Source: Eubacteriales bacterium
Lineage (GTDB): Bacteria; Bacillota; Clostridia; Oscillospirales; CAG-272
DNA length: 46,077 bases
Direction: 5' to 3'
NCBI GenBank assembly: GCA_045632205.1
Contig: JAZQWH010000005.1
Location: forward strand, 1-46,077
Made by a program: the position numbers and the translations under genes. Positions 1 through 46,077 of the stretch are shown piece after piece. The stretch's first letter is position 1, and the number at the start of each line of letters is the position of its first letter. The notes below the pieces were generated by a model. That model did no database searches. It had not been told where the DNA came from and worked only from the letters and a program-made list of their open reading frames with translations.

Positions 1-81
1 ACTGGCGAGTTTCGACCCATCGCCCGAACTGGCGAGTTTCGACCCATCGCCCGAACTGGCGAGTTTCGACCCATCGCCCGA
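1..81 (-). repeat. 27-bp tandem repeat, 3 exact copies of ACTGGCGAGTTTCGACCCATCGCCCGA
   Basis: Exact copies at 1-27, 28-54 and 55-81. In frame on the minus strand they encode the nonapeptide SGDGSKLAS. The same unit is found at 45874-46077. Confidence 0.97.
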
Positions 82-483
82 AAAATTAACCTTTTTTAGC
101 CAGTCTATAGAAAAACCAACCGCCGCTTTCACAAACCCGCAAAAGGTAATTTTTGCGCCGATTTTGAGCCGCGTTGTGACTTTTTTATTATTATCGCCTT
201 CGCAAGGCGCGAGCGCTTGAACTTCCGCGAACTCGTTAGGAATTGCGTCATCGTTCAACAACGGATAATGGTCAAGCACATCAAGCGGGTTTTCGCAGAA
301 GTGCATCCCCTTGTTGCACAACTGCGCTTCCGGCTCCTCGAACACGGTATTTTCGGCGTACTGCTTGCCCCGGCAGATCAGCCCCGGCTCGAAGCCCTTG
401 AAGCCGACCGCATAGACCTTTTCATCGCCGCTTTCGGCTTTTTTCGGTGCGGACGTGAAACGACCTTTTTCGTCTCTGTTCAT
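1..483 (-). CDS. N-terminal part of a repeat-containing protein (DUF7666-like domain followed by SGDGSKLAS repeats); partial, runs off the window start
   Basis: ATG at 483-481 overlaps the upstream stop (ATGA). My translation: MNRDEKGRFTSAPKK...GFKGFEPGLICRGKQYAENTVFEE..LCNKGMHFCENPLDVLDHYPLL..., then SGDGSKLAS x3. The GFKGF...C.G.QY...G.HFCENPLDV..YY pattern is what I recall for DUF7666 phage/bacterial proteins. The +strand ORF 217-519 is its shadow. Confidence 0.7.
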   Translation of the reverse strand, partial: MNRDEKGRFTSAPKKAESGDEKVYAVGFKGFEPGLICRGKQYAENTVFEEPEAQLCNKGMHFCENPLDVLDHYPLLNDDAIPNEFAEVQALAPCEGDNNKKVTTRLKIGAKITFCGFVKAAVGFSIDWLKKVNFSGDGSKLASSGDGSKLASSGDGSKLAS

Positions 484-1196: not shown

Positions 1197-1257
1197 TGCT
1201 ATATTAAGGAACGGCACATCACCGGAGGCTTTTTCCGCATTGCTGCGGAGAAAGGAG
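1197..1257 (+). promoter_or_regulatory. Extended -10 promoter (TGcTATATT, 1197-1205) plus leader with hairpin CCGCA-TTGC-TGCGG (1235-1248) and GGAG/AAAGGAGG
   Basis: TGnTATATT motif. The leader is paralogous to 1479-1539, and the hairpin shows compensatory changes between the two copies. Confidence 0.55.
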
Positions 1258-1425
1258 GTGATAAGCATAGACATCGTTTCTCTTGGAGTGATGGACAGAA
1301 ACCGAGCGATCGGCATGTATGTCCGCGAAGTGCGGGCGATAATATCGCGCCGCGTGTCCGAGGGTAAAGACGCCGCAGCCATCGCGCGGGAAGTCTTGCC
1401 ACTTCTGCGCGAGATCGTGCTTTAG
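1258..1425 (+). CDS. Small helical protein, paralog A (about 55 aa; start uncertain: GTG 1258 or later)
   Basis: In-frame sequence ..ISIDIVSLGVMDRNRAIGMYVREVRAIISRRVSEGKDAAAIAREVLPLLREIVL. It shares the pattern LG.M...RAI-x19-DAAAI...V.PL with ORF 1540-1725 although the nucleotides have diverged. Confidence 0.6.
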   Translation: MISIDIVSLGVMDRNRAIGMYVREVRAIISRRVSEGKDAAAIAREVLPLLREIVL

Positions 1426-1478
1426 AAATCTTTGCCGTAGAACATTGGCCTACCCCTCCGGTGATGTTCCGTTTTCGA

Positions 1479-1539
1479 TGCTATATTAAAGACGCGGCGC
1501 ACTACCGGAGCCTTGACCGTCGCAGGACGGAGAAAGGAG
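1479..1539 (+). promoter_or_regulatory. Second extended -10 promoter (TGcTATATT, 1479-1487) plus leader with hairpin CCGTC-GCAG-GACGG (1517-1530)
   Basis: Duplicate of the 1197-1257 cassette. Same -10, same CGGAGAAAGGAGGTG ribosome-site block. Confidence 0.55.
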
Positions 1540-1725
1540 GTGGTGCTTATAAGTGATGTTGACCTCGGACTAATGTCATACGACCGGGCGATCCGCGTGT
1601 TGTCGCGCGAACTGCTCTCGGTCGTGGCGTTGAGTTTGTCGAACGGCATGGACGCGGCGGCGATCATGGACAAGGTAGCACCCTTGATTTCCCTGATCGA
1701 CGATTGCGACGCCATGCTTCGATAA
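1540..1725 (+). CDS. Small helical protein, paralog B (about 61 aa; start uncertain)
   Basis: ..LISDVDLGLMSYDRAIRVLSRELLSVVALSLSNGMDAAAIMDKVAPLISLIDDCDAMLR. Paralog of 1258-1425. Confidence 0.6.
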   Translation: MVLISDVDLGLMSYDRAIRVLSRELLSVVALSLSNGMDAAAIMDKVAPLISLIDDCDAMLR

Positions 1726-1759
1726 CTCATCTTCACCTTAATCCCCGGCAGTGCGCCGC

Positions 1760-2106: not shown

Positions 2107-2541
2107 ATGGATAAAATTGCAGAAAAACTATTTACATACATGCATGTCAACGGAATAACCCAAAGAGACGCCGCGACGATGCTGGGAGTGGATCGCAACA
2201 CACTAACCAACTGGCGCAATGGAGGAGTTGTAGGTGCAAAAAGCGTTCGCGCCATTCAAGAACTCACGCGAGATTTTGTCAAAGAACAGCACGAAACTTC
2301 TATTGGAAAGATTGATGAAGTAACCGCTTGCTTGCTTAAAACCATTATACAGTTGCCCCTCGTAGATCGTTGCCGCTTGCTTGCGATTGCCGATGATATG
2401 AAAAATGGTGCAAATTCTTCCGCAATCCCGAAGAAAATATTGCATTGCCCTGCTTGCGGGGTAGACCTTCCCGATACTTGGAAAGTCGGAGACAAACACG
2501 AATGTCCGAAGTGTGGACAACATATAAAACTGGTTCCGTAG
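2107..2541 (+). CDS. Repressor-like HTH (XRE-type) protein with C-terminal zinc ribbon, no S24 peptidase domain
   Basis: AAGGAGG lies 6 nt before ATG 2107 (the ORF track starts at 2065). HTH segment ITQRDAATMLGVDRNTLTNWRNG. C-terminus HCPACG...ECPKCG. Divergent from the RHH gene. Confidence 0.8.
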   Translation: MDKIAEKLFTYMHVNGITQRDAATMLGVDRNTLTNWRNGGVVGAKSVRAIQELTRDFVKEQHETSIGKIDEVTACLLKTIIQLPLVDRCRLLAIADDMKNGANSSAIPKKILHCPACGVDLPDTWKVGDKHECPKCGQHIKLVP

Positions 2542-2542
2542 C

Positions 2543-4630
2543 ATGACTGATTACGAAACAATCTATGTCAGCATTGGCGAGCGCGATCTTCCGCTAACTC
2601 AATATACGCACCGCGAGCCGGACATGGAGCCGCGCATTCACGCTCCGCTTGCCGACCTCCACACGCATTATGAGATTGTCGAAAAGTTTGCCGAGGGCGG
2701 CTTTTCCACCGTCTACGTCGCACAGGATAAAAACCTCCGGCGCTTCGTCGCGGTCAAGTCCCTGCGCCCGGAGGTCACCGCGACCGACTCTTTCATATCC
2801 GAAGCCAAGACCATCGCCCAACTCGACCACCCGGCGATATTGCCGATTTACGGACTTGCCGGAGACGAACACAACGGGCTGCACCTTTGCATGAAACTCG
2901 TGAACGGTCGCACCCTGCGCCATCGTCTGCGCCATATCGTAAGTTCGGGCAAAGACAGCGACGCGGCGATCCGCGAACGACTGGACATTTTCTTGCGAGT
3001 TTGCGATGCTGTTTCCTACGCGCATGCGCGCAACATTATTCATGGCGACCTCAAACCCGAAAACATCGTGGTCGGTGAATACGGCGAAGTCTATGTTGTG
3101 GATTGGGGCTTGGCAAAAAAGGTCGCGCCCGATGGCGCATGCGCCGATGTAAAGATCGTCGGTACGCCGCGCTATTTCGCGCCCGAAACTCTGCGCGACG
3201 GCATTTGCGGGAATTTCTCTGAGGTATTCACTCTCGGGCTTATTTTGGAAGAAATAACCACCCTGCGCCTCGCGGTCAACGAAAACGGCGAAGCCGCGCC
3301 CGCGCCGGAGGTGCTGAGACATCTTTTCGGACATCGCATCGACGCTCCGCTTGCCGCAATCATCCGCAAAGCAACCGCCGCCGACCCCGGCGACCGATAC
3401 GATACGACCGCCGACCTTGCCGACGATCTCCGTTGTTACCTCGCGGGAGTGGCGGTCTCCGCGCTCCCGGATAATCTTTTTTCGCGTTTTGCCCGCATTT
3501 GCTGTCGCCGCCGGAAAGAGTGTGTTGCCGGGGCGTTGGCGGTGCTGCTGGTGTTCGCCGCTATCACCGCCGCCGCGATCTTCCGGCAACTACAAATATC
3601 GCGGGAAATGCACGAGCGAAGCCGCGCGTTCAATTACTTGAACGACCGCACCGCGACGGTCGCGGCGCACCTTGACTTGACCGCATTACAGATTCAGGAG
3701 CAATTGCTCGCCCTTGCGCGTATCTGCGCGTATCTGCTTGATTCCAATACCACGCCGCCCGCCGACGCATGGCAAGCGGCGTTCCGCCCGTCTCTCTCCG
3801 AAATCGGCAAATCCGAAAACGGCATGATCTATTCTCCGTATTATAAGCGGTTGACCGCGATGGATTACGGAATTTACCAGTTTGCGCCCGATGCCGACCG
3901 CGCGCGGTGTATCGACTTCATGCGGCGCACCTCTCCCGCGCTGCGTAAAATGCGAAACATCGTCCTCGGCAGCATGTCCGGGTACAATTTCGTCCCCGGC
4001 GAGTTCGAGCGGTTGAAGATGGCGTATCTTTACAACGGCTTTCCTGTGCGTTCCGTGTTTGTCGGTACGGTTGACGGGTTGAAGTTGCTCTATCCGTGGC
4101 GTGGCAACTATCCGCGCACCGTTGACCCTCGCAAGCGCGACTGGTACAAACTGGCGCGCCTCCGCCGCGCTCCGGTGTGGGGCAAGCCGTACATGGACTT
4201 CGACTCGGTTTCCGGGCTGTCAATCCCCTGCTCCGTCCCGATCATCGACTTTCAGGATAACTTCCGGGGCGCTGTCGGACTTGACCTCTCGCTAAATAAA
4301 CTGACGGAGCGCATTTTGAGCCGGGGCAACGTGGGCGACTATGTGATCGAAAAAGCGGTAATCAGCCGCGCCGGGGAGACGGTCTTTTCGTCGAAGTCAA
4401 AGTATTTCAACGCGAAATTCGATCCCGAAAAGTTCCACCGCGATACCGAGTTCAAAACTCCGATGTTTTCCACTCCCGAAGTGCGCGACCGCATTTTGAA
4501 AAGCGGCAGGGAGTACGGAACTTTCATTGTCGGCAAGGAGATTTATTCATTCGCGGTACTGGAAGTTTTCGACGCGGTTTTCGTGGTAGTCGCTGACTAC
4601 GACAAACTTAAACAACATATCAGGAAGTAA
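2543..4630 (+). CDS. Membrane Hanks-type Ser/Thr protein kinase with one TM helix and a C-terminal extracytoplasmic Cache-like sensor domain
   Basis: Kinase motifs EGGFSTVYVA, VAVKSL, HGDLKPENIVV, DWGLAK and GTPRYFAPE. TM helix at about aa 327-347 (VAGALAVLLVFAAITAAAIF). Ectodomain carries RDWYKLA..WGKPYMDFDSVSGLSIPCSVPI, the Cache/PDC signature. The ATG lies 1 nt after the upstream stop. Confidence 0.88.
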   Translation: MTDYETIYVSIGERDLPLTQYTHREPDMEPRIHAPLADLHTHYEIVEKFAEGGFSTVYVAQDKNLRRFVAVKSLRPEVTATDSFISEAKTIAQLDHPAILPIYGLAGDEHNGLHLCMKLVNGRTLRHRLRHIVSSGKDSDAAIRERLDIFLRVCDAVSYAHARNIIHGDLKPENIVVGEYGEVYVVDWGLAKKVAPDGACADVKIVGTPRYFAPETLRDGICGNFSEVFTLGLILEEITTLRLAVNENGEAAPAPEVLRHLFGHRIDAPLAAIIRKATAADPGDRYDTTADLADDLRCYLAGVAVSALPDNLFSRFARICCRRRKECVAGALAVLLVFAAITAAAIFRQLQISREMHERSRAFNYLNDRTATVAAHLDLTALQIQEQLLALARICAYLLDSNTTPPADAWQAAFRPSLSEIGKSENGMIYSPYYKRLTAMDYGIYQFAPDADRARCIDFMRRTSPALRKMRNIVLGSMSGYNFVPGEFERLKMAYLYNGFPVRSVFVGTVDGLKLLYPWRGNYPRTVDPRKRDWYKLARLRRAPVWGKPYMDFDSVSGLSIPCSVPIIDFQDNFRGAVGLDLSLNKLTERILSRGNVGDYVIEKAVISRAGETVFSSKSKYFNAKFDPEKFHRDTEFKTPMFSTPEVRDRILKSGREYGTFIVGKEIYSFAVLEVFDAVFVVVADYDKLKQHIRK

Positions 4631-5726: not shown

Positions 5727-6839
5727 ATGGCGCTCCGCAAGATAAAACTCGGCTATTACATCCACTACCGCGACGAACAGGGGCGGCAGCGCACGATGTC
5801 GCTGCATACCCGCGATCCGAAGATCGCGCGGAAAGTCCACGATGACTTCATGGCGAAACTCTCCGCCGCCAAGACCACCTACAAACTTTTGGAGCGCCAC
5901 GGTAGTTTGTTCCCCGAGGCGGCGGCGCAAGCCATGTTGGAGGAAAGCCCCGTCCCGGAATACCATCCGCGCGAGGAAAAGCGCCTCCGCCTCGATGAAA
6001 TGATCGAGGTGGCACGCCAGCACCGCGAACTCTCCAAAGACCACATGGACACTTTCGCCCGGTTCTGCACCGCCGTAGCGCCGCTGAAATACGCCAAAGA
6101 GATAACCCCGGAAGTCGCGCTGGACTTCCTCGACGCGCGCTACGGCGGCGGGAACGGCAAGACTTACAACAACGTGCTGACGCAACTTAACGTGATCTTC
6201 AAATCGTGCCTTGTCCGCGCGCACATGGACACGTCACCGTTCGCCTCCATCCCCCGGCGCATTGTCCGAAAAGTCGAACACTTCCGACCGCTGACACCTG
6301 ACGAGTTCCGCGCTGTCTTTGCCGCCGCCGCCGAGCCGTGGAAAACCGCCGCCCTGATCTCTTGGCATACCGCGCTCCGACGCGAAACGTGCTTTCGCCT
6401 TTCTTGGTCGCACATCGACGAAGCCGACCATTCGTTTACCATCATGCCGGGGAAAACGGCGCGTTTCGGGCGCGCTGTGTACGTGCCGATCCACCCGGAG
6501 TTATGGCAACACCTGATTGCGCTGCCGCGCCCCGCAGACCCCTCAAAACCGATTTTAAGCCAATGGCCGCAACACGTCCGCTACGGGGGCAACAAGGAAC
6601 TTGAATATTTTTCGGGACTGCTCCGCGCTCTGGACATCCGCGACACGTCCGAGGGGAAAGCGGGGTTTCACTCGCTCCGGGCGTCGTTCGTCACCCGCTG
6701 CGACGAGGCGGGGATTTCCCGTCGCGCGACAAAGGGGATCGCCGGACACACCGCCGATGACATGACCGACCTTTACAGCCATGACCGCGCGACCGCGCGG
6801 CAAATCCTGACCCTCCCGAACGTGCTGGATACCCCCTAA
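5727..6839 (+). CDS. int: Tyrosine recombinase / phage integrase
   Basis: C-terminal catalytic pattern: ..WHTALRRET.., HSLRASFVT, GIAGHTADDMTDLYSHD (R..HxxR..H..Y). Adjacent to a tRNA fragment. Confidence 0.92.
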   Translation: MALRKIKLGYYIHYRDEQGRQRTMSLHTRDPKIARKVHDDFMAKLSAAKTTYKLLERHGSLFPEAAAQAMLEESPVPEYHPREEKRLRLDEMIEVARQHRELSKDHMDTFARFCTAVAPLKYAKEITPEVALDFLDARYGGGNGKTYNNVLTQLNVIFKSCLVRAHMDTSPFASIPRRIVRKVEHFRPLTPDEFRAVFAAAAEPWKTAALISWHTALRRETCFRLSWSHIDEADHSFTIMPGKTARFGRAVYVPIHPELWQHLIALPRPADPSKPILSQWPQHVRYGGNKELEYFSGLLRALDIRDTSEGKAGFHSLRASFVTRCDEAGISRRATKGIAGHTADDMTDLYSHDRATARQILTLPNVLDTP

Positions 6840-12199: not shown

Positions 12200-13876
12200 A
12201 TGACCGGGAAGAAACTCAAGGAGATAGAAGAAATGTTCGATTTTTTGAAAAGCGAGAAAGAGGCGGAGAAGGTGGAGCCGAAGGTGTCTGCGGATGCGTC
12301 GGAGCATGTGAGCGCGGAGGAACTGCGCCGCTTCGAGAAAGCGCGGGCGGAACTCAAGAAGCGCATCCGGGAAGTGGAAGCGAAGCGCGAGCAGAAGCGC
12401 GCGGAGTTGCTAGGAAAGATTTTTCCGCAGCGGACGATGACGGAAATAGAATTTGGCGGGGAGCGCAGGGGCGAGGCTTCGGCGCTGGCGATGGACTGCG
12501 CGCTGCCGGGGTTGGGCGGCGGGGTGTCGATGGCGCAGCGGATGATGCTCGACCGCGAGATAATTGATCGGATGCCCGCGTACTTCATCGGGTGGGACAC
12601 CTGCGCGGTGCTGGCGCAGAACTGGCTGATCGACCGGGCGTGTACCATTCCGGGCGAGGACGCGGTTTCGCCGGGGTGGGAGTTGGAGTATTCCGAGAGC
12701 GTGAGCAAAACGGGAAACATCACCGAAGCGGGGCAGATCGAACAGGCGAAGCGATTGAAGGAGATCGAACAAAGCGCCGAGGAGTTCGATTTGGTGGAGG
12801 TGCTGAAAAAGGCCGAGCGGCTGAAAAAGATTTTCGGCTATTCACTGATTGTCCCCGACATCGAGGGAGTGGACATGTCGAAGCCGTTTACCTCCGACAC
12901 GCCGATCCGCAAAGGGTCGTACAAGGGGTTTGCCGTGATCGAACCGATGTGGGTTATTCCGCAGTTGGGCGAAAACGGTCTCAACCCGGCGAGCAAAGAT
13001 TTTTACAACCCGGAATGGTATCGGGTGGCGACGATGGACATGCGGATTCACCGGAGTTGGTGCTTGAAGTTGGTGAACTCGCCCGTTGCCGACCGCCTGA
13101 AACCCGCGTATTTCTTCGGCGGGGTGTCGCTGACGCAGCAGATTTTCAAGCGCGTCTACGCGGCGGAGAGCGTGGCGAACGAAGCCCCCAACTTGGCAAT
13201 GACGAAACGCTTGCGGTGGCTCACGGGGTCGCTGGAAACCGCGGTGGCGAATCCGGATTTGATCGACGAGCGGATGAAGATGCTGGTCGAGTTGGCGGAC
13301 AACTACAGCACCGTCCTTGTGGGCGAGGATGGGCGCGTCGGGCAGTTGGATACGAGTTTGACCGACTTCGACGAAATGACGATGACGCAATATCAGTTGG
13401 TGGCAGCGGTGGCGCAGGTCCCGGTCACTAAACTCATGAAAACGCAGGTGCGGGGCTTCGACAGTTCGGGGAGTTACGAGCGGGACGATTACAACCAAGC
13501 GCTGCGGACGATACAGGAAAACGACTTCACGCCGATCATCCAGCGCCACAATATGCTGTTCAGCCGCTCCGAGTACGGCGAAAATCCGGCGCTCACGGTG
13601 CGGTGGCACGAGATCCAGTTGCCCAGCCCCAAGGAGGCGGCGGAGATACGGCTGATCGACGCGCAGCGCGACGCGCATTTGATCAATGCGTCGGTCATCA
13701 GCCCGGACGAGGCGCGGGAACACTTGCGGAACGATGACAAGAGCGGCTACACCGAACTTGCGGACGAGATGGAGGGCGAAACGCTGTCCGAGTTGGAAAA
13801 CAGCGATTACGTCCCGGATTTCGTCGGAACTTCGCCGGACAAGGGGCTTGGCAAGCCCGTGAGTGCGGAGGCGTGA
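12200..13876 (+). CDS. Portal protein (DUF1073-like)
   Basis: Size and position after TerL. Conserved-looking core. Acidic C-terminus. Confidence 0.8.
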   Translation: MTGKKLKEIEEMFDFLKSEKEAEKVEPKVSADASEHVSAEELRRFEKARAELKKRIREVEAKREQKRAELLGKIFPQRTMTEIEFGGERRGEASALAMDCALPGLGGGVSMAQRMMLDREIIDRMPAYFIGWDTCAVLAQNWLIDRACTIPGEDAVSPGWELEYSESVSKTGNITEAGQIEQAKRLKEIEQSAEEFDLVEVLKKAERLKKIFGYSLIVPDIEGVDMSKPFTSDTPIRKGSYKGFAVIEPMWVIPQLGENGLNPASKDFYNPEWYRVATMDMRIHRSWCLKLVNSPVADRLKPAYFFGGVSLTQQIFKRVYAAESVANEAPNLAMTKRLRWLTGSLETAVANPDLIDERMKMLVELADNYSTVLVGEDGRVGQLDTSLTDFDEMTMTQYQLVAAVAQVPVTKLMKTQVRGFDSSGSYERDDYNQALRTIQENDFTPIIQRHNMLFSRSEYGENPALTVRWHEIQLPSPKEAAEIRLIDAQRDAHLINASVISPDEAREHLRNDDKSGYTELADEMEGETLSELENSDYVPDFVGTSPDKGLGKPVSAEA

Positions 13877-45662: not shown

Positions 45663-46077
45663 TCCGCCACCTCCACGAACTTGCCATTCTTGACCGTGTA
45701 CCAAGTGTCGGCTTTGATCTTCTCCCCATCAACCTTGCCGGAGATTAGCGCGACCGGATGCCATTCGCCTTTGTCATTCTCTCGCCACTCCGCGCAAGCG
45801 ATGAAGCAGCCGAGCGCGCCCTTGACCTTGCTTTCGCGTCCGGTGGCGGCTATCACGGAGTTCTCCCCGGTCGCTTCGAGTTGCGACCCATCGCCCGAAC
45901 TGGCGAGTTTCGACCCATCGCCCGAACTGGCGAGTTTCGACCCATCGCCCGAACTGGCGAGTTGCGACTCATCGCCCGAACTGGCGAGTTTCGACCCATC
46001 GCCCGAACTGGCGAGTTTCGACCCATGGCCCGAACTGGCGAGTTTCGACCAATCGCCCGAACTGGCGAGTTTCGACC
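45659..46077 (-). CDS. C-terminal part of the repeat protein (continues from the window start if circular)
   Basis: The open frame enters from the window end: SKLASSGDWSKLASSGHGSKLASSGDGSKLASSGDESQLAS...SGDGSQLEATGENSVIAATGRESKVKG...KNGKFVEVAE stop. Confidence 0.7.
   Translation of the reverse strand, partial: SKLASSGDWSKLASSGHGSKLASSGDGSKLASSGDESQLASSGDGSKLASSGDGSKLASSGDGSQLEATGENSVIAATGRESKVKGALGCFIACAEWRENDKGEWHPVALISGKVDGEKIKADTWYTVKNGKFVEVAE
45874..46077 (-). repeat. 27-bp tandem repeat, about 7.5 copies with point variants
   Basis: Units begin at 45899, 45926, 45953, 45980, 46007 and 46034, with a 17-nt partial unit at 46061. Variants are TTGCGACTC (DESQ), CATGGCC (H) and CCAATC (W). 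Confidence 0.95.

Follow-up and report, generated by a model that had tools for sequence, protein, structure and literature searches.

The window analysed here, a 46,077-nucleotide stretch of contig JAZQWH010000005.1 from a Eubacteriales bacterium (assembly GCA_045632205.1), is a complete, circularly permuted phage-like genome with a 27-bp tandem repeat across both of its ends. The switch region of this genome, which belongs to an uncultivated temperate phage, contains two tandem cassettes on the plus strand (1197-1477 and 1479-1780), each made up of a -10-type box, a leader, a hairpin at the ribosome site, and a small open reading frame (ORF). Both cassettes converge on a 58-residue gene that is read leftward from 1936 to 1760 and occupies the position of Cro as the first gene of the leftward lytic transcript, and this transcript has to cross them. 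Each cassette is probably, though by no means certainly, a self-contained rightward transcription unit within the phage switch.

Cassette 1 opens with an extended -10-like box (TGcTATATT, 1197-1205) that has no -35 element, and an exact repeat of this box opens cassette 2 (1479-1487). A preliminary description of this DNA had pointed to a duplicated promoter-like box and leader end, and both duplications are borne out: TGCTATATTAA occurs exactly twice in the 46 kb, at 1197 and 1479, and CGGAGAAAGGAGGTG, at the end of the leader, occurs exactly twice, at 1246 and 1528, where 0.01 occurrences would be expected. The extended -10 box is predicted to serve as a promoter. An Rfam scan of the whole window gave no match.

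The cassettes have few relatives. Only five distinct relatives emerged when 5.8 billion proteins were searched by word index and 1.84 billion cluster representatives were scanned in full with HMMER, and a search with the Cro-position protein returned only itself. The metagenome contigs of the five relatives, together with contigs carrying the same Cro-position gene (the source of L005-L007), make up a set of seven related contigs, termed L001-L007, which supplied seven full cassettes. No more homologues were found in IMG/VR, where searches were made by protein, by neighbouring gene, and by DNA pattern, or in JGI metagenomes, GTDB genomes, or INPHARED phages. Wherever a contig reaches, the gene order is the same, with early genes on the minus strand, the cassette on the plus strand, a small Cro-position gene on the minus strand, and a helix-turn-helix (HTH) gene on the plus strand. 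Both flanks are covered in L001, L002, L004, and L007, and the Cro-position side in L003, L005, and L006; the divergent HTH gene is visible in L001, L002, and L004, and an integrase follows it in L001 and L004. The -10-like box is present in six of the seven homologous cassettes, and L004 has AGCTACATT instead. The preliminary description had also turned on whether ORF and hairpin are conserved among homologues; the cassette is kept as a unit, and it is also tandem in L005 and L006, where an A-type copy is followed by an L003-type copy.

The most distinctive feature of each cassette is a long inverted repeat of its own, formed by 1210-1228 and 1455-1473 in cassette 1 (18 of 19 positions) and by 1488-1508 and 1745-1765 in cassette 2 (18 of 21). 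No other long-range inverted repeat in the 46-kb window is as good as these two. Each 5ʹ arm begins about 6 nt past the -10 box, where the transcript would begin, and beyond its 3ʹ arm each cassette has a T-run (5 or more T in 8); arm and T-run together occupy 1455-1477 in cassette 1, and arm and T-rich tail together occupy 1745-1780 in cassette 2, where they overlap the stop codon of the leftward gene 1936-1760. With one arm near the putative RNA start and the other followed by a T-run, the predicted RNA therefore closes its 5ʹ end onto its 3ʹ end. The first of these repeats had been noticed earlier, with the same 18 of 19 matches, and linked to a possible antisense transcript over ORF A. The repeat itself is real; however, it is not special to antisense transcription of ORF A, since 1455-1473 provides the 3ʹ half of the helix that closes cassette 1 and cassette 2 has a covarying helix of its own.

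Several lines of evidence point to pairing of these arms in RNA. Whole-cassette RNA folds close 5ʹ to 3ʹ with z scores of -5.2 for cassette 1 and -6.3 for cassette 2, and the end-to-end duplexes of the seven cassettes all lie between -26 and -42 kcal/mol, values that no more than 1 in 1000 shuffles equals. The cognate arm is the best partner in every cassette but the chimeric one of L001. The two sets of arms in the window are nearly orthogonal, with cognate pairs at -35.1 and -33.7 kcal/mol and crossed pairs at -20.4 and -23.1. In the seven-sequence alignment, the closing helix comprises 17 pairs, of which five have changed on both sides, and 90% of cells are paired (45-62% in slid controls); its covariation score was reached by none of 500 shuffles. 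Moreover, RNAalifold recovers the helix de novo. Only five or six of the aligned sequences are independent, and the MAFFT alignment puts L003, L004, and L005b out of register in places. Assigning the helix to a strand by counts of G.U against A.C pairs or by strand-specific energies was tried and was not decisive. Self-hairpins of 3-4 bp inside the 3ʹ arms of some loci were considered as local terminators and are too weak to rely on.

The closing helices might instead act mainly in the leftward immediate-early RNA, in which a helix of ~19 bp would loop out the antisense cassette. Lying between the Cro-position gene and the early genes, the helix might act there as a conditional terminator or an RNase III site, and ribosomes loaded at a conserved minus-strand ribosome site and ATG could read through the helix and the terminators beyond it, allowing the early genes to be expressed; the plus-strand ORF may be real even then. 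Such a role is unlikely. In its favour, the helix is equally stable on the minus strand and has A/T tracts on both sides. Leader lengths of 49, 52, and 55 nt, separated by multiples of 3, also speak for it, whereas the weaker U-tract on the minus strand (4-5 T in 8) and the lack of any identified antiterminator do not favour it. Further evidence on this alternative comes from the leader hairpin and the minus-strand frames, considered below.

The arms and their flanks also bear on whether the repeats act at the level of DNA. The left flank of the window is common to L001 and the right flank is common to L003; the cassettes therefore lie at a mosaic junction, and their copy number changes by recombination between the repeated leaders. 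L001 itself holds a single chimeric cassette in which leader 1 of the window is joined to ORF B. These mosaic junctions, and a copy number of either one or two, would suit inverted repeats that are the ends of a mobile or invertible cassette, or recombination sites, with the apparent covariation arising from exchange of arms. This explanation is highly improbable. The cassette has the same orientation in all seven contigs, and its arms vary from copy to copy, unlike a shared recombinase site, which should be conserved. Furthermore, no dedicated recombinase lies beside the cassettes, no further cassette copies are found elsewhere in the window, and no target-site duplications were seen.

Between the 5ʹ arm and the ORF, each leader folds into a second structure. 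The tip hairpins given in the preliminary description, CCGCA/TTGC/TGCGG (1235-1248) and CCGTC/GCAG/GACGG (1517-1530), are as stated and differ by two compensatory pairs, though they are the tips of longer hairpins at 1229-1254 and 1511-1537. These longer hairpins pair a CUUUUUCC-type stretch with GGAGAAAG, and the upstream GGAG is therefore masked. In cassette 1, the hairpin has 11 bp and a UUGC loop, pairing CUUUUUCCGCA with UGCGGAGAAAG over the upstream GGAG; in cassette 2, a CCUU/AAGG lower stem carries a CCGUC/GACGG upper stem. RNAalifold recovers this leader hairpin de novo as well. Unlike the closing helix, which is equally stable on the minus strand, the leader hairpin favours the plus strand, being more stable there in five of the seven cassettes and containing a conserved U.G pair that becomes C.A on the minus strand; both points count against the leftward RNA as the site of action. 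The masking of the ribosome site in the RNA is a prediction of these folds.

The site predicted to be masked appears to be a strong one. The sequence AGAAAGGAGGTGAT (with GGT in cassette 2), at 1249-1262 and 1531-1544, is a perfect 14-nt complement of what is presumably the Firmicute-type 16S rRNA 3ʹ end. This match gives a hint of the host group and suggests a ribosome site of unusual strength, overlapping the likely GTG start of the ORF.

Downstream of the hairpin, ORF A (1258-1425, plus strand, 55 residues) and ORF B (1540-1725, plus strand, 61 residues), each with a putative GTG start, encode related small proteins. The two are 42% identical over 53 residues (E 4e-11), and the RAI-x19-DAAAI spacing previously described for both is correct. 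ORF B is a full-length family member with a predicted helical hairpin. ORF A is a diverged paralogue with a shortened C-terminus, lacking the last six residues of the family (the DxCDAM region), and its stop codon is read through in L005. Constraint on ORF A appears relaxed because its ratio of nonsynonymous to synonymous substitutions (dN/dS) is higher, the DxCDAM motif is lost, and the stop is read through in L005; copy 1 is accordingly regarded as a decaying or diverging paralogue.

Each cassette also has a long open frame on the opposite strand, and the preliminary description had left room for the minus-strand ORFs to be the translated ones. The plus frame is favoured in every coding test. 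The codon log-likelihood per codon is 0.32 and 0.39 for the plus frames, and no minus frame exceeds 0.19. In 15 of 15 pairs, the plus frame has the higher amino-acid identity and the higher BLOSUM score per site, and dN/dS is lower in the plus frame in all 9 computable of 10 pairs (e.g., 0.15 vs 0.33). Columns that keep Leu or Arg despite first-position codon changes number seven in the plus frame and two in the minus frame. AlphaFold models ORF B as a helical hairpin with helices at 14-34 and 39-60 (predicted local distance difference test [pLDDT] 86, predicted template modelling score [pTM] 0.67, 6-row alignment), whereas the minus-strand product gives pLDDT 51 and pTM 0.18 (2-row alignment). 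Together, these results support the plus ORF as the coding frame.

The product is predicted, from the modelled fold, to be a soluble two-helix protein of ~60 residues. The highest 19-residue hydropathy of the small proteins is 0.78-1.54, and 10-17 charged residues are spread throughout each of them. The small proteins had no match in Pfam, PHROG, NCBIfam, PADLOC, or PDB sequences, and Foldseek returned nothing or generic helical hairpins only. That the family could not be recognised from the sequence at first sight is in keeping with these remote-homology searches, which gave no relative of known function, and the small protein represents a new and very rare family.

A conserved motif lies just 3ʹ of the plus-strand stop codon and is legible on the minus strand. 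After the stop of ORF B, CATCTTCACCTTA (1728-1740) reads on the minus strand as AAGGTG-AAG-ATG, that is, a ribosome site and a start codon. The motif CATCTTYAACCT, which on the minus strand gives AGG, 5-7 nt, and ATG, is kept in four divergent loci (in the relatives at ~6336-6350 of L002, ~405-420 of L003, and ~570-585 of L004), 25-30 nt after the Cro-position gene. The consensus fold leaves this motif unpaired, and the plus RNA is complementary, in its 3ʹ part, to the conserved ribosome site and ATG of the minus strand. Pairing of the motif with the plus-strand ribosome site was considered and rejected, as the duplexes were no better than shuffles.

The minus-strand motif is a reason to ask whether the minus-strand ORFs (1736/1730 to 1422 and 1382 to 1038) are the true genes of a simple leftward operon and the plus-strand promoter, ribosome site, and ORF are by-products. 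A compact operon would result, and no locus has fewer than 102 open codons in this frame. In L006, one gene caller picked the minus strand, choosing an ORF of at least 144 residues; however, gene callers picked the plus strand in the window and in L001, L002, L003, and L004. The minus frame loses every coding comparison, its product is rich in Ser, Arg, and Ala, and the two window copies begin at different places. Moreover, the minus-strand ORFs, of 102-168 residues, have non-homologous C-terminal ends and run through terminator hairpins. The minus frame that is open in all loci is the one that shares its third codon positions with the plus ORF, so that an open antisense frame is the default, and its openness is about that expected by chance once the shared wobble positions and the geometric expectation are allowed for. 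The minus ORF thus does not look gene-like, and it is quite improbable that these ORFs are the genes of the locus.

The same observations bear on the leftward RNA as the place where the closing helices act. Conservation of the ribosome site and ATG in four divergent loci, and minus-strand ORFs that traverse the leftward terminator hairpins, favour that alternative. On the other hand, cassette 1 has no minus-strand ATG, and the openness of the minus frame is close to chance level.

A combination of both strands into a single switch element is also conceivable, and is proposed because the conserved ribosome site and ATG of the minus strand are otherwise left unexplained. In this combination, which is improbable as a whole, one closing helix of ~19 bp would act in the RNAs of both strands. 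In the plus-strand RNA, it would be the cap and terminator of a small regulator mRNA; in the immediate-early transcript from the minus strand, it would combine with the hairpins farther downstream to make a conditional stop. Ribosomes loaded at the minus-strand ribosome site and ATG would translate through this stop and override it, and the plus RNA would mask that ribosome site. If this were true, passage from immediate-early to early expression would be set by antisense control of translation-coupled antitermination.

Under the preferred interpretation of the cassettes as rightward transcription units, transcription from the extended -10 promoter would yield an RNA of about 260-280 nt. Its initial ~19 nt would pair with the final ~19 nt, just before the U-run, a pairing that is predicted and has covariation support; in the window copies, each arm would prefer its own partner. 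The closing helix would define or stabilise both RNA ends and would stop transcription from entering the Cro-position gene. The leader hairpin would conceal the upstream GGAG of a very strong ribosome site, and translation of the ~61-residue soluble two-helix protein, whose coding status is supported, would probably be gated. The cassette lies between the Cro-position gene and the leftward terminators and early genes; its RNA and polymerases would therefore oppose the leftward immediate-early transcript. The cassette RNA would be antisense to the 3ʹ part of that transcript, itself a probable one, and convergent interference or antisense pairing would be an obvious consequence of the layout. 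The most likely effect would be to damp or time lytic transcription, alongside any action of the small protein.

Several points weigh against this interpretation. What is said of promoter, RNA ends, and a terminating helix around a loop of ~230 nt is all deduced from the sequence, the putative promoter has no -35 element, and the box of L004 (AGCTACATT) is weaker. The start codon is uncertain, and the GTG taken as the start sits within the 14-nt ribosome-site match AGAAAGGAGGTGAT. Covariation in the closing helix, drawn from five or six independent sequences, is suggestive and not statistically secure. The helix is about as stable in the minus-strand RNA, and the tally of G.U against A.C pairs is 4 to 3. 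The AlphaFold comparison of the two strands is uneven, with an alignment depth of six rows against two. Additionally, the conserved ribosome site and ATG of the minus strand have no explanation in a model built on the rightward unit.

The closest RNA architecture to that of the cassettes is found in type I toxin mRNAs of the hok, aapA1, and tisB class, which have long-distance 5ʹ-3ʹ pairing and a masked ribosome site (PMC8594479; PMC5416894). Like these mRNAs, the cassette would specify a short mRNA with its own -10 box, predicted 5ʹ-3ʹ pairing, and a masked ribosome site, and it would overlap antisense transcription and occurs in tandem copies. Since 5ʹ-3ʹ pairing, a sequestered ribosome site, tandem copies, and antisense overlap are the descriptors of such mRNAs (PMC8594479), the cassette could be a module resembling a type I toxin-antitoxin system, in which an end-paired mRNA encodes a toxic peptide checked by an antisense RNA from the leftward transcript or from an unseen small RNA. 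This identity is very doubtful. Unlike a hydrophobic membrane peptide, the product is charged throughout, with the low peak hydropathy given above, and is predicted to be a soluble helical hairpin. Neither a discrete antitoxin RNA gene nor a separate antitoxin small RNA was found for the cassettes, which also had no Rfam, PADLOC, or NCBIfam match. The only clear source of antisense RNA is the promoter of the leftward operon; an antisense promoter at a minus-strand TAATAT box (1481-1489) is conceivable but unsupported.

Among phage switches, lambda P_RE/oop and P22 sar are promoters downstream of cro or arc that fire against the lytic transcript, and oop and sar are short non-coding RNAs of ~70 nt. 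Like them, the cassette lies downstream of the first lytic gene, points in the opposite direction, and would give an RNA complementary to the lytic transcript. However, the cassette RNA carries a conserved ORF and appears to end before the Cro-position gene, and no CII-type activator site was found at the cassettes. The wider comparison with the P22 immI region, offered in the preliminary description, fails on its components: there is no Ant (ORF A, ORF B, and the minus-strand ORFs have no Pfam, PHROG, or NCBIfam match) and no verified Arc or Mnt, and no short sar-like RNA was recognised, the plus RNA being coding although complementary to the minus-strand ribosome site and ATG. The second immunity layer with antirepressor-like small proteins, suggested in the same description, is a conjecture that the results neither favour nor weaken.

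The comparison with phage 186, drawn in the same place, extends to the convergent promoters but not to the operon that they drive. In phage 186, face-to-face pR and pL form convergent promoters in the lysis/lysogeny switch (PMC5001618, PMC7708051), and convergent promoters are likewise predicted here. However, the convergent lysogenic promoter of 186 drives cI-int and lies 62 bp from pR, whereas the repressor-integrase operon of the window is divergent and its convergent units are separate small genes, 240-800 bp away, so that the convergent promoter would drive the small ORF only. The cassettes also resemble prophage morons (insertions of promoter, ORF, and terminator) in being autonomous small units between phage operons. 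Unlike morons, they are fixed in position at the switch in all relatives, their terminator would be a non-canonical, long-range helix, and their composition matches that of the rest of the phage genome.

The cassette may best be described as a variant of antisense and convergent control themes that encodes a new small protein. It is a real and conserved element of unusual structure, and as a mechanism it is a candidate with good documentation. Beyond the lambda, P22, 186, and P2 models, few phage lysis/lysogeny switches have been mapped well, and the switch of the window holds a conserved module beyond the usual repressor/Cro pair. If transcript mapping confirms the predictions, the cassette would provide a compact natural example of an end-paired mRNA architecture outside toxin-antitoxin systems and a new small-protein family tied to a switch. 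The orthogonal arms of the tandem copies would be useful for synthetic insulation of transcription units.

The switch itself is organised around divergent promoters. A leftward promoter-like site, TTGACA-16-TATATT, runs from 2004 to 1977 on the minus strand, matches at 11 of 12 positions, and heads the 58-residue gene; as had been proposed, transcription from it would cross the cassettes. Divergent from it lies a repressor-like HTH-zinc-ribbon gene (2107-2541, plus strand). Among the leftward genes of L002 are RecT and a YqaJ exonuclease, which marks leftward as the lytic direction and places the 58-residue gene in the Cro position. In the window, early genes continue leftward from 941 downward. 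The convergence of the cassettes on the gene at 1936-1760 had been described correctly, whereas its designation as a ribbon-helix-helix (RHH) gene has no Pfam or PDB match behind it: the window gene also lacks PHROG and NCBIfam matches and has no similarity to the RHH_1 gene of L002. Only the positional equivalents in L002 and L004 match PF01402 (RHH_1), and L003 and L005-L007 carry the window gene without change.

On the minus strand, terminator-like hairpins with U-runs (1091-1165) lie to the left of the cassettes, before the early gene at 941, with counterparts in L002 (5965-6058, minus strand) and L003 (~45-110, minus strand). Identified by eye and by folding, these hairpins are weak in the window (z -1.0 at ~1091-1165) and in L003 (-1.7) and clear in L002 (-3.6); a terminator scan of 600-2200 found no conventional terminator. 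Their presence suggests that the immediate-early transcript is short and that read-through or antitermination is required. In L001, an extra segment of ~150 bp (1165-1345) lies upstream of the cassette relative to the window and resembles a second copy of the leftward terminator-like hairpin.

Two short repeats were seen around the switch promoters. A 17-nt inverted repeat, TTTTCTTTTTCAAAATT at 1924-1940 and AATTTTGAAAAAAATAA at 2010-2026 (88% complementary), flanks the divergent promoters. The heptamer TTAAGGA has three of its five window sites within 850 bp of the switch region (1204, 1854, and 2045), with the site at 1204 just after the -10 box of cassette 1; it was dropped as an operator half-site, as other loci do not conserve it.

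Elsewhere in the window, a portal or minor-head gene is found at 12200-13876 and a tyrosine integrase at 5727-6839 (plus strand). The 27-bp tandem repeat, present in ~10 copies (window 1-82 and 45877-46077), encodes SGDGSKLAS repeats and lies inside a minus-strand DUF7666 gene that runs from 483 leftward across the window ends. Because this repeat spans both ends, the contig is circular or permuted; the array may have been collapsed in it. Directly after the HTH-zinc-ribbon gene, in the lysogeny operon, a Ser/Thr protein kinase of 695 residues (2543-4630, plus strand; Pkinase 5.7e-34) carries a PDC/Cache-like sensor domain at its C-terminus. This kinase fits models of the PD-T4-6 anti-phage defence kinase at 4e-49, and a homologue stands in the same place in L002.

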